64,000 nt of DNA, from the NCBI RefSeq assembly GCF_024223415.1, contig NZ_CP100500.1; one strand, 5' to 3'. Position 1 is the first letter of the stretch. Each line of letters begins with the position of its first letter. This document shows, piece by piece, positions 24,604 to 61,918 of the stretch. The translations under genes were made by a program, and so were the position numbers. The DNA comes from Escherichia coli (GTDB taxonomy: Bacteria; Pseudomonadota; Gammaproteobacteria; Enterobacterales; Enterobacteriaceae). The notes beneath the pieces were generated by a model. The model was not told where the DNA came from and did not search any database. It worked only from the letters and a program-made list of their open reading frames with translations.

Positions 24604-25188
24604 TTACTCCCTGACAGGGTTCGTAGGCCACTCAATATCAGGTGCAGTTGATGTATCAACACGGTTCAGCAACACCCGATACTTTTTCCAGGCTTCCAGC
24701 AATGAGGTTTCTTCCTCCGTTGCGATTTCCAGATCTACAGCATCCTGAAGTGGCGCAATATGCTCACTGGCTACCTGCATCAGGCTGTTTTTTGTTTCTT
24801 CCGCCTCCCGGATCCGGAACAGTTTTTCTGCTTCTGCATCTTTCACCCAGGCTGTGCCGTTCCACTTCTGAAACTCCCCTTCCGGCGATAACCAGGTAAC
24901 ATTTTCCGGTAACGGACCGAGTTCAGAAATAAATAACTCGTCCCCTGACGCTACGTCATAAACCGTTTTACCCCGATGGTCTTCAACGAGATGCCACGAT
25001 GCCTCATCACTGTTGAAAACAGCCACAAAGCCAGCAGGAATATCTGGTGGTGCAATATCGGTACTGTTTGCTGGCAGACCTGTATGAGGCGGAATATATG
25101 CGTCACCTTCACCAATAAATTTATTAGTTCCGGCCAGCAGATTATAAATTTTTATGGTCCGTGCTTGTTCACTCATTCTGAATGCCAT
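24604..25188 (-). CDS. tail fibre assembly protein (Tfa)
   Basis: 194 aa; immediately downstream of side tail fibre gene; conserved Tfa C-terminus ([16 protein letters not shown]). Confidence 0.85.
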
Positions 25189-58818: not shown

Positions 58819-59486
58819 GCGTTAGTTTCTCCACAACCAGAAGCAATCGACGCCACGACGCCCGGAGCTGCACACTCGCGGGCGTCATTACTTTCTGAAA
58901 TGCAAAAGATTTTGTAGACCAGTGCTGCATGCTCCTGCAGCTTCGAAATTGAGAGATACAGCTCGTCGTTAATTGCTGTCTTCTCATGCGGTTCCACTAC
59001 ACCGTCTTCGATTGCTGAACGAATCTGTTTTGAATAACTGCCGATCTGTTCAATGACTTCCAGCAGACGCTGGTTAATATCGGCGTTGTCCACATCCTCG
59101 ACGTCAGGAAGAGACACAAAGACGCCATTTGCAGACTGCGCCACAGCGTCAGCAATGAAGTGAGTTCCACCAGCACGTTGCAAAATCATTGCCCATCCCA
59201 GCGGGAAAATCTGATCGCCATCGGCACGAAGGCGGTTAAATAATGCGTTCTCTGTTACATCCAGCCAGTCAGCTGCTTCAGCGTAACCACCCGGCAACTT
59301 TGCGATAGTTTTTCTGACAGCTTTCACGTACCACTCAGGCTGTTTTTCTACTTTCCAGTGATGCTTACCCACGGTTAGCCTCATCGTTCTGTGGTTTCTG
59401 TTAATCGATTTATCCATTAGATTTTTCATAAAGCTCAGGTTTAAATGGCAACCGTCCGCAAGTTCTATATGCAGCTTCTGCTGCAC
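58815..59486 (-). CDS. putative CII-like early regulatory protein
   Basis: ORF directly downstream of cro-like gene; true start probably an internal Met at ~59384-59429 because the longest ORF overlaps cro. Confidence 0.45.
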
Positions 59487-59610
59487 GTCCTTTTGGAATT
59501 AACTGGCCCGGACGGTTTCGCCACTGATAAACGGCTTCAGTTGTTATGCCGAAAAAAGCAGCAACTTTCTCAATACTGCCGAAGTAGCTTTCGATATCGT
59601 CAGTTGTCAT
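59410..59610 (-). CDS. Cro-like HTH regulator
   Basis: 66 aa; divergent from repressor gene; HTH-like segment (VAAFFGITTEAVYQWRNR). Confidence 0.75.
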   Translation of the reverse strand: MTTDDIESYFGSIEKVAAFFGITTEAVYQWRNRPGQLIPKGRAAEAAYRTCGRLPFKPELYEKSNG

Positions 59611-59707
59611 ACGCCCTCCAAACTAAGTTTTGTTAGATGCTAATTACAAATCTATCTTTGGTCAATAAAAACTAAGATTACTTAGCAATTAAAGAAATGG
59701 TGCTCCT
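59611..59707. promoter_or_regulatory. divergent cro/cI control region with two operator-like 14-bp palindromes
   Basis: CTAAGttttGTTAG at 59623-59636 and perfect CTAAGattaCTTAG at 59672-59685 between divergent starts. Confidence 0.55.
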
Positions 59708-60334
59708 ATGGAAACGGTTGGTCAGCGTATAAAAGCTCTGAGAAGAGTTACCAGAACGTCCCAGAAAGAATTGGGTAAATTTTGTGGAGTAAGCGACGTT
59801 GCTGTGGGGTACTGGGAGAAAGACATCAATACCCCTGGTGGGGAGGCACTTTCGAAATTAGCGAAGTTCTTCAATACGTCAATAGATTACATTCTTTATG
59901 GTGCTGAGTTTGAAGGCAAACTCGTCACAAACATGCGCAGAGTTCCTGTAATATCGTGGGTTCAGGCTGGGCAGTTTACTGAGTGCAGGGCAGCAGAAGT
60001 GTTTAGTGAAGTGGACAAGTGGGTAGATACATCATTAAAGGTTGGTGATAACTCATTTGCATTAGAGGTTAAAGGTGACTCCATGACTAACCCTAATGGC
60101 CTCCCAACAATACCAGAAGGCGCAACAGTGATTGTAGATCCAGATGCAGAACCTCGTCATGGAAAAATAGTCATCGCTCGACTTGATGGAACAAACGAAG
60201 CTACAGTAAAAAAATTAGTCATCGATGGCCCTCAAAAGTTTTTAGTGCCATTAAATCCTCGGTATCCCAACATCCCTATCAATGGTAATTGCCTTATCAT
60301 TGGTGTAGTCAAAGGAGTTCAATACGAACTCTAA
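59708..60334 (+). CDS. CI-type repressor (HTH + S24 LexA-like peptidase domain)
   Basis: 208 aa; N-terminal HTH (SQKELGKFCGVSDVAVGYWE); C-terminal catalytic Ser/Lys context (VKGDSMTNP ... KKLV). Confidence 0.9.
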   Translation: METVGQRIKALRRVTRTSQKELGKFCGVSDVAVGYWEKDINTPGGEALSKLAKFFNTSIDYILYGAEFEGKLVTNMRRVPVISWVQAGQFTECRAAEVFSEVDKWVDTSLKVGDNSFALEVKGDSMTNPNGLPTIPEGATVIVDPDAEPRHGKIVIARLDGTNEATVKKLVIDGPQKFLVPLNPRYPNIPINGNCLIIGVVKGVQYEL

Positions 60335-60413
60335 GGCCTCTCTTCTCTAACTAAGGCACCGAACTAAGAAAAGTTTGGTGTTTTCTCTTGCCATAATAAC
60401 TAAGTTAAGTTAG
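60331..60413. promoter_or_regulatory. cluster of CTAAG operator-like motifs just downstream of cI
   Basis: CTAAG at 60331, 60351, 60364 and palindrome CTAAGttaaGTTAG at 60400-60413, same half-site as the cro/cI region. Confidence 0.4.
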
Positions 60414-60564
60414 ATTTTATATCAAAGATAACGAACAGGCAGGACGCCCACGAAGTAGCCGCCTGGGGCATATAAAGTCCAGGATGATTCGTTAGCAACA
60501 AAAAAGCGCCCTACAGGACGCTTAGCTCTTTAACAATCTGGGTATCATCCAACCAATGCAAGAT

Positions 60565-61086
60565 TTAAGGAATCCAAGGCGAATTCAGATCTCGCCCCAA
60601 CTCACGTAATGATCTTGGTCGTTCGTACATCGGATTTTTTTCCATAAGAAATTTATTTTCACAGTGAAGGCAACGGCTTGTAAGAAAATGAGAAGTTTTA
60701 CCTACTGGAAGCGGATGAAGTATCGATTTTATATTTTTGGAATAACAAAGTGGGCACAGATGCACAGTTATTTCTTTTCCACTCACAATTTCATTTTTAG
60801 AGTAAACAAAAGCACCAGAGTCAAGCTGATCAAGGACATATCCTTCTACCTTGGCACAAAAATCTTCAAACTCTGCAATTTTTGCTTTGAGATGCATCAC
60901 CTCTTCATCACGAAGGCGGATCGCATCGCCAAGAGAGAAGCATTCTGCCTGAAGCGTGATTAGTTTGTTCTGGAGTTCAATGGTTGCAGCTTTAACTTCT
61001 GCATCCGTTTTCGCGTCATTAATAACCTTAGCAAGACCGGCAGTCTCCTTTATAGCGGCCATAGCCGCAGACAGTTCAGCTATCAC
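60565..61086 (-). CDS. hypothetical coiled-coil / zinc-ribbon protein beside the immunity region
   Basis: 173 aa; N-terminal coiled-coil-like region; C-terminal CPLC-x24-CLHC; convergent with cI; antisense frame is low-complexity. Confidence 0.6.
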   Translation of the reverse strand: MIAELSAAMAAIKETAGLAKVINDAKTDAEVKAATIELQNKLITLQAECFSLGDAIRLRDEEVMHLKAKIAEFEDFCAKVEGYVLDQLDSGAFVYSKNEIVSGKEITVHLCPLCYSKNIKSILHPLPVGKTSHFLTSRCLHCENKFLMEKNPMYERPRSLRELGRDLNSPWIP

Positions 61087-61373
61087 GTTGAATACTCAGC
61101 TAGTTGTTGGGGATATCCAGATTAACCAAATCCTTGTTGTTGGGGAATAACTAGGTCCACCTCGCCTGATGTGGCTAAAAGCAGGCACATAACAGCTAAG
61201 TATTTTCAACCAGAGAGAATCCTTAGCGTTGTGGTGAATGCGGCTCAGCGCACGCGGGTTAAGGTTGAGGCTGACAGTCGACCTTCTGTGGATACCCACC
61301 CGCCTGGTGTGCAACCTTCGCCAGGCACCGGGAGGCACCCGGCACCACAACTTTATGCTGTGTGTAGTCCTGG

Positions 61374-61418
61374 CGGTACCAGCTTGTACCCTTGCTTCCG
61401 GCTGGTACCGTCCTTTTT
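61374..61418 (+). terminator. strong stem-loop plus U run in the leftward-operon leader
   Basis: Perfect 10-bp stem cggtaccagc / gctggtaccg with 17-nt loop, then tccTTTTT. Confidence 0.5.
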
Positions 61419-61555
61419 ACAAAACAGAGAAGAGCATCACCGGACGACGGGCTCATAACCCAATCCATCCGGGCGGCAGTCACCGCAGGTGTTCTTCTCT
61501 GTTTTGTGGAGAAACTAACCGACCTTGCAGGGTCGATATGATGAGGAGCAGCAAA

Positions 61556-61918
61556 ATGGCTAGCGAACGCAGTACTGATGTGCAGGCATTTATCGGGGAG
61601 CTGGACGGCGGCGTATTTGAAACCAAAATCGGCGCAGTTCTCAGTGAAGTCGCTTCCGGTGTGATGAACACGAAAACCAAAGGTAAGGTCTCGCTCAACC
61701 TAGAAATCGAACCGTTTGATGAGAACCGAGTGAAAATCAAACACAAACTCTCATATGTTCGCCCGACTAACCGCGGGAAAATTTCCGAAGAAGACACCAC
61801 CGAAACGCCGATGTATGTCAATCGCGGTGGTCGCCTGACTATTCTGCAGGAAGACCAGGGACAATTACTGACTCTTGCCGGTGAGCCTGACGGAAAACTC
61901 CGCGCAGCAGGTCGTTAA
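61556..61918 (+). CDS. hypothetical early protein (YfdP-like, unverified)
   Basis: 121 aa from ATG with RBS gaggag; the upstream in-frame extension to 61238 is Arg-rich and judged non-coding. Confidence 0.55.
   Translation: MASERSTDVQAFIGELDGGVFETKIGAVLSEVASGVMNTKTKGKVSLNLEIEPFDENRVKIKHKLSYVRPTNRGKISEEDTTETPMYVNRGGRLTILQEDQGQLLTLAGEPDGKLRAAGR

Follow-up and report, generated by a model that had tools for sequence, protein, structure and literature searches.

Readthrough of downstream terminators in phage HK022 needs the put RNA, which binds the β' zinc-binding domain. HK022 putL and putR and the put-like RNA of HK639 resemble the locus described here in being cis RNAs located upstream of terminators in the early operon of a lambdoid phage that lacks N; HK022 put measures about 70 nt, consists of two adjacent stem-loops and occupies the very start of the transcript. 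The early-left leader of lambda (nutL-N-tL1) likewise combines a boxA with a downstream terminator placed before the recombination/excision genes, and its function requires a boxB hairpin and the arginine-rich N protein. Lambda 6S RNA (pR'-tR') and StxS of Stx phages are terminated prophage leader RNAs acting as sRNAs; they too are short terminated transcripts ahead of an operon opened by antitermination, but they start at a late promoter and are not known to contain the conserved pseudoknotted domain described here. The family with the closest structural likeness is that of STnc100 (RF02076) and PasD1/PasD2. PasD1/2 from EPEC prophages are abundant Hfq-dependent sRNAs on Northern blots (PMC8550237), 11 STnc100 copies are transcribed without induction in EDL933, one of which was confirmed by Northern blot (PMC5331693), and PasD and STnc100 have been described as related (bioRxiv 10.64898/2026.05.13.724894).

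The sequence analysed here is a 64,000-nt stretch of Escherichia coli DNA (GCF_024223415.1, contig NZ_CP100500.1), hereafter referred to as the window, which carries a lambdoid prophage with its immunity region at 59.4-60.4 kb. The genes and the promoter of the early region are the following.

59410-59610, minus strand: cro
59708-60334, plus strand: cI-type repressor gene
beyond cro, minus strand: cII-like gene, replication genes and a Q-like gene (ORF list and PHROGs)
60388-60416, plus strand: putative pL promoter TTGCCA-17-TAGATT from a promoter scan, overlapping cI operator repeats
60565-61086, minus strand: opposite-strand gene of 173 aa inside the pL leader (PHROG 1244)
61556-61918, plus strand: yfdP (ATG at 61556), first plus-strand gene past pL, followed by yfdQ and yfdR

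Operator-like repeats (ACTAAG..TTAG) are found at 59621-59685, in the cro/cI interval, and at 60362-60415, and judging from these cI operator repeats the promoter-like site at 60388-60416 was taken as pL, with a predicted start near 60423. pL and yfdP are separated by an untranslated leader of about 1.1 kb, and the region of interest, 61161-61555, makes up its final 400 nt; it lies about 770 nt from pL and thus does not directly follow the promoter. As the 60565-61086 gene is located inside this leader, transcription from pL must cross it antisense. Its product has a coiled-coil-like N-terminus and a Cys-rich C-terminus, PHROG 1244 being annotated as function unknown. Between the start of this gene and a conserved flank (CCTGATGTGGCTAAAAGCAGGCAC), a direct repeat (CTnGTTGTTGGGGA) is present twice, 33 nt apart (61100-61146, plus strand). 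The module containing these repeats borders unrelated opposite-strand genes in other phages, and a similar pair, 34 nt apart, is found in the HK639 pL operon; this repeat zone may be a divergent control region. Elsewhere in the window, an Rfam IS009 match (24647-24845, minus strand; 229.5 bits, well above the gathering score) adjoins the prophage tail-fibre end.

The absence of an N gene, proposed in a previous sequence-only reading of this DNA, was upheld by a PHROGs scan of ten neighbouring early-region ORFs, in which no N-like protein and only the Q-like one was found. In SfV, orf33 occupies the N position and is not arginine-rich.

The same reading had described the roughly 400 nt ahead of yfdP as a GC-rich, structured non-coding leader. 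The GC content amounts to 0.575-0.59 at 61200-61499 compared to 0.35-0.48 on both flanks, and the predicted folds are markedly more stable than those of shuffled sequences (z-score -4.15 for 61160-61425 and -5.28 for 61410-61560; in both cases 0/200 shuffles as stable), which, together with helices that covary in homologues (see below), bears out the description. Three inverted repeats had been listed, and all of them, like the GC excess, exceed chance and are located where they had been placed: GCTAAG/CTTAGC (61195-61200/61222-61227), which forms the base of a hairpin with 13-nt arms; a perfect 10-bp stem (61374-61383/61401-61410) followed by U5, which grows to 13 pairs; and a perfect 15-bp repeat (61419-61433/61493-61507), whose arms extend to 25 nt. 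The list had, however, overlooked the main helix, a 9-bp pairing of 61228-61236 with 61343-61351, which closes a multi-helix pseudoknotted domain. The complete set of RNA elements of the region is as follows.

61195-61227, plus strand: 5' hairpin (GCUAAG.UAUUUUC/GAGAAU.CUUAGC), part of an optional cassette; -11.8 kcal/mol, z -5.9
61228-61351, plus strand: STnc100/PasD-like core, 124 nt (Rfam match and family model)
61228-61236/61343-61351, plus strand: P0, closing helix of the core, 9 bp
61240-61244/61250-61255, plus strand: P1 of the core, A61252 bulged
61261-61267/61312-61318, plus strand: pseudoknot of AAGGUUG with CAACCUU in the S2 loop
61302-61309/61319-61326, plus strand: hairpin S2 of the core
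61328-61332/61338-61342, plus strand: P4 of the core, loop AGGCA
61357-61369, plus strand: conserved single-stranded spacer GCUGUGUGUAGUC in the gap between core and terminator
61372-61418, plus strand: intrinsic terminator, 13-bp stem 61372-61384/61400-61412 (about -22 kcal/mol), C and U5 (61414-61418)
61414-61512, plus strand: long hairpin D, with a three-way junction (61440-61486) on top of its stem (61414-61438/61488-61512)
61520-61535, plus strand: small hairpin E (CGACCU-UGCA-GGGUCG), preceding the yfdP RBS GAGGAG at 61543-61548

A covariance-model scan for known RNA families, one of the checks proposed along with the sequence-only reading, returned STnc100 (RF02076) over the whole model (window 61198-61421, model positions 1-206 of 206; E 6.1e-7) at 42.4 bits, which is below the Rfam gathering score of 47 bits; for comparison, the late-region copy of HK639 scores 52.6 bits. 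A 19-nt motif taken from this match recovered more than 100 viral contigs in 31 clusters, which have little in common beyond GGUGAAU...CCGGGAGGCACCCGGCACC. From these clusters we built a family covariance model (R1) based on 26 diverse copies, to which the window matches once, at 85.9 bits; HK022 has no copy, HK639 has a single one in the late leader, and no second copy of the core was found in the pR operon of the window.

The signature of the core, i.e. the closing helix, the GGUGAAU junction following it and the CCGGG-AGGCA-CCCGG hairpin abutting the 3' strand of P0, is present at 61228-61351 and is the same in STnc100 and PasD1/PasD2; its columns are invariant among the 26 copies. Also shared with STnc100/PasD are the covarying helices and the occurrence in lambdoid prophages. 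The window copy differs in the letters of P1 and of the middle domain, which still pair, and in having an extra 5' hairpin. In P1, GCGGC/GC.CGC replaces the usual CCCCC/GG.GGG with the bulged A retained, and the CCGGG/CCCGG of P4 gives way to GGUGG/CCACC in another subfamily, around a constant AGGCA loop. The 5' hairpin of ST64B likewise has different letters with the pairing kept (AUAAGAGUU/AACUCUUAU).

Across 68 distinct sequences, 96.8% of the cells of the core helices are paired and 22/26 base pairs show compensatory changes, values that none of 500 shuffles matched, although the underlying alignment was fitted to the model and thereby favours the structure. Slid controls, which pair at only about 40%, and the variety among the types of base pairs nevertheless argue for a real signal. 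Covariation in relatives, the second check proposed, is thus apparent throughout these helices, and P0, P1, S2 and P4 are also reproduced by the single-sequence minimum free energy fold. Overall, the assignment of 61195-61351 to a divergent member of the STnc100/PasD family is well supported.

The S2 loop pairs with the segment just past P1, and 37 distinct versions of this helix were encountered. Column-wise counting on the model alignment is unusable for the pseudoknot, as its 5' strand changes register among subfamilies, and a shuffled-loop null is weak (14/65 sequences individually significant); instead, cognate loop/upstream combinations were compared to non-cognate ones, yielding 6.61 versus 4.74 pairs, with 0/20000 permutations as high. 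Moreover, ST64B retains the pseudoknot pairing but disrupts a competing local hairpin favoured by the single-sequence fold.

The compensatory pairing and the G-U pairs on the plus strand indicate selection on an RNA transcribed in the pL direction. A protein encoded in the region, either YmfH or an N-terminal extension of YfdP, was considered as well. Open frames do exist (61171-61458 and 61238-61918, the latter providing the extension), and RefSeq labels the homologous stretch in e14 of E. coli K-12 ymfH. The ymfH frame, however, is interrupted by three stop codons in ST64B and is shifted in e14 relative to the window, PGAP labels the homologous stretch of Z247 a frameshifted pseudogene, and the substitutions track base pairing and not codons. 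A coding function is therefore extremely improbable, the conserved protein-coding frame that the sequence-only reading had named as an alternative is broken or displaced in relatives, and ymfH of e14 is probably not a protein gene. In the e14 sequence analysed (L246), ymfH at 2576-2887 overlies the STnc100-like core, the terminator and hairpin D. The P4 hairpin of this copy is damaged, as expected of a decaying cryptic prophage.

Sequence similar to the region is present in 2780/5426 complete E. coli genomes, and its organization in relatives is modular. BLAST matches in phages fall into classes covering either the whole region or 61371-61560 alone. One relative (L150) lacks about 165 nt (roughly 61194-61360) between conserved flanks while keeping the terminator, hairpin D and yfdP, so that the 5' hairpin and the core constitute an optional insertion/deletion cassette of about 165 nt. 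In mEp460, a third, weaker-scoring core variant precedes the same terminator and hairpin. In L189, the core is followed directly by a small hairpin and yfdP, without terminator or long hairpin, and in L042, L106 and L113 it directly precedes other genes, again without a terminator. The window, ST64B, L131, L144, L126 and L150 have the spacer GCUGUGUGUAGUC in common, whether or not the core is there.

An intrinsic terminator follows most STnc100/PasD copies within a few tens of nucleotides, and in the window it begins 21 nt past the core; a strict scan for perfect stems found one behind the core in 25/38 distinct copies of the early type and 51/93 typical ones. Typical copies belong to the late region, where stx2B, tRNA genes or Q precede them and nanS-p, holin or lysis genes follow. 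In contrast, the window copy sits in the early-left leader, between cI/pL and yfdP. Units of core and terminator are repeated in tandem about every 240-260 nt in prophage late regions (L050, L059, L098, L116, L117 and L122), L122 having three cores and L050 six or more.

The length and perfection of the inverted repeats, along with the sharp borders of the core cassette as an insertion/deletion unit, could suggest a function at the DNA level, in recombination or in protein binding. Yet the arms change together amid sequence drift, many of the pairs are plus-strand G-U pairs that in DNA or on the minus strand would correspond to A-C mismatches, and neither an integrase nor an att context was found nearby. 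We consider such a DNA site highly improbable, and the suggestion of a recombination site made from the letters is not supported, as compensatory changes and G-U pairs restricted to the plus strand indicate selection on RNA. Taken together, 61161-61555 is a non-coding plus-strand RNA made of three separable modules, and there is good support for identifying these as a divergent copy of the STnc100/PasD cassette, a terminator and a long hairpin conserved in the yfdP leader.

The stem of the terminator is wholly different among the window, ST64B, L144 and L126, and the hairpin and the CUUUUUAC tail are retained in all of them. In the comparative fold, the terminator U-tract is taken up into the stem of hairpin D, for which RNAalifold on seven variants gave 40 pairs, 9 of them compensatory and several U-G; the Rfam search returned only noise for this hairpin and no family. 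The stem of hairpin E is swapped for other pairing sequences in ST64B, L131 and L126. A riboswitch or attenuator was also considered and rejected: terminator stems are swapped wholesale without a corresponding change in the core, core and terminator each occur alone, and no riboswitch match was obtained.

No convincing or conserved sigma-70 promoter belonging to the cassette was found just upstream of it; a TGnnTAAAAG-like motif at 61170-61181 was rejected, as it misses the -7 T and is absent from ST64B. A discrete sRNA would consequently need processing or termination of the long pL transcript.

The sequence-only reading had offered three options for the region, and next to the recombination site dealt with above these were a cis-acting antitermination RNA of the HK022 type and a small RNA ending at the terminator. 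For the comparison with put, we used HK022 putL and putR, the annotated HK639 put-like RNA and a consensus from 46 put-like sequences of viral contigs. The consensus (GAACGGCGCGAC-N3-UAAACCAUGCGUCGG and stem II GGCGGG..CGGCAAU) has no match in the window at up to 3 mismatches, and comparing the region with HK022 DNA by short-word BLAST yielded chance words only. In contrast to put, the core of the window is 124 nt long, is built on a closing helix and a pseudoknot, begins about 800 nt past the pL start and is dispensable in L150. Letters resembling put do occur in typical STnc100 copies (CGGGUUCAGG) and in the promoter-proximal RNA M1 described below (CGAAC...CAGGAUGA), but once the families are aligned they fall in non-equivalent helices, and those of M1 hinge on one variant of a covarying stem.

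A core that acts in cis as a processive antiterminator, as an analogue of put carrying its polymerase through near and later terminators, would agree with the intrinsic terminator found 20 nt behind it and with the lack of an N gene in the operon, and its junction nucleotides, near-invariant across phages of several genera, would suit a conserved host machine. Besides the missing consensus and the unrelated architecture, several observations speak against such a function. Terminator, hairpin D and yfdP are all retained in L150 although the cassette is gone, core and terminator recur together in tandem arrays, and HK639, which has an annotated put-like RNA and Q, still carries a copy in its late leader. 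Furthermore, the relatives are discrete sRNAs, mostly followed by a terminator that apparently works behind the core (PMC8550237, PMC5331693); if they indeed end at this terminator, then it works, which is the opposite of the put effect. The core is thus probably not an HK022-style antiterminator, and processive antitermination by it appears quite unlikely. The distance of about 770 nt from pL likewise disagrees with the put-like proposal. The small RNA ending at the terminator appears to be the best-fitting of the three options, considering the full-model STnc100 match at 61198-61421 and the relatives known as discrete sRNAs.

In the window, the position of put is occupied by a different element, M1, itself unrelated to put in sequence, and a boxA is located shortly behind it.

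60429-60494, plus strand: M1 leader RNA, about 66 nt, with outer stem 60429-60435/60488-60494 and hairpin 60462-60467/60478-60483
60504-60523, plus strand: hairpin ahead of boxA, which on the minus strand reads as the terminator of the 60565-61086 gene
60525-60536, plus strand: rrn-type boxA GCUCUUUAACAA without mismatch, the only such match in the window; about 100 nt from the start of the pL transcript

The order of hairpin and then boxA is the one known from rrn leaders rather than from lambda, and a boxA on a long untranslated transcript is expected to shield it against Rho by Nus-factor antitermination. While lambda nut/N needs boxB and N, no N-like protein was found among the scanned ORFs here. 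BoxA accompanies M1 in many loci.

M1 contains a near-invariant segment of 27 nt (AGGCAGGACGCCCACGAAGUAGCCGCC), and about 60 nt are kept at 85-100% identity in phages of Escherichia, Shigella, Salmonella, Citrobacter, Klebsiella, Yersinia, Pantoea and Pectobacterium. Among 73 distinct variants both stems covary, the outer one as CGAA/UUCG, CCACC/GGUGG or GUCAUC/GAUGAC and the inner hairpin with at least nine stem versions. A promoter-like site ends 17-29 nt upstream of M1 in 53/98 distinct flanks, compared to any such site in 8/85 control flanks, which places M1 at transcript 5' ends. It is unannotated in 1397/5426 E. coli genomes, present in e14 of the K-12-derived NEB Turbo, and gave no Rfam family but only noise; no second copy was found in the pR operon of the window. 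A homologue of the 60565-61086 gene adjoins M1 within an unrelated operon in L134. About 40 of 93 M1-bearing loci have an STnc100-like core a few hundred nucleotides downstream on the same strand, and in L150 and L147 an HK022-type put directly follows pL, behind a cI and pL like those of the window. The M1 sequence did not occur in any searchable paper; the article on RNAs resembling put in J. Bacteriol. (2011) was not part of this set. On the grounds of position and conservation, M1 and the boxA are better candidates for an antiterminator than the core.

Taken together, these results suggest a model, towards which we lean with moderate confidence, in which a terminator-ended sRNA module and transcription barrier sits in the pL leader of an N-less lambdoid phage, with readthrough being set near pL. 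By analogy with the relatives, an sRNA module doubling as a barrier would be the likeliest role of core and terminator. The terminator would halt ordinary RNA polymerase and give rise to a stable STnc100-like RNA ending there, which may then act as an sRNA as reported for the late-operon relatives, and the same stop would silence yfdP and the genes beyond it (yfdQ and yfdR, and xis-int in relatives). Polymerase started at pL would be rendered termination-resistant earlier in the leader and read through, the candidates for this step being M1 (60429-60494), the boxA (60525-60536) together with host Nus factors, or both, whereas the STnc100-like core itself would not be the antiterminator. Past readthrough, the long hairpin would fold in the yfdP 5' UTR, where it is a candidate processing or stability element.

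Hfq-dependent RNAs that act by base pairing do not usually contain a structured, pseudoknotted domain of this kind, which counts against the sRNA reading. The helices of the STnc100/PasD core have a tRNA-like layout, and in phages of Escherichia, Salmonella, Klebsiella, Yersinia, Pectobacterium and Pantoea M1 starts no more than about 10-20 nt from early promoters. We therefore tentatively entertain, as a less than probable proposition, that M1 represents a new promoter-proximal antiterminator class of N-less lambdoid phages and, separately, that the STnc100/PasD core is a protein- or polymerase-binding domain and not a base-pairing scaffold. ARAGORN predicted no tRNA anywhere in the window. 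In the early-left operon of HK639 (L123, 33694-33763, minus strand) it made a tRNA-Ile-like call with a perfect T-arm and an ACCA end, for which the Rfam tRNA model gave no report at E <= 0.01.

Some copies of the family sit in 5' UTRs without a terminator, which would fit a role in cis in mRNA stability or translation. The modules could then be cis elements of the yfdP mRNA: the core would stabilise the transcript from its 5' side or direct its processing, the long hairpin would serve as an RNase III-type site governing how stable or how well translated yfdP is, and no sRNA would act in trans. Such a role would be in line with the cores placed directly before genes without a terminator in L189, L042, L106 and L113, and with hairpin D, whose stem of about 25 bp is always tied to the yfdP RBS region. 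It appears unlikely, however, in view of the terminator behind most family copies, the relatives being discrete sRNAs, with PasD Hfq-dependent, and the cassette being dispensable in L150. The terminator-ended sRNA module with readthrough set near pL is the explanation we favour.

Overall, these results concern an element which so far is unannotated or mislabelled as protein, as ymfH in e14 of K-12 and as frameshifted 'hypothetical proteins' elsewhere. The pseudoknot is a well-supported addition to the STnc100/PasD structure, the core is shown to be a mobile cassette of about 165 nt, and the family gains a second genomic position in the early-left operon. Moreover, with M1, boxA and a defined terminator at hand, the control of early operons without N in SfV-, ST64B- and e14-type phages becomes testable.
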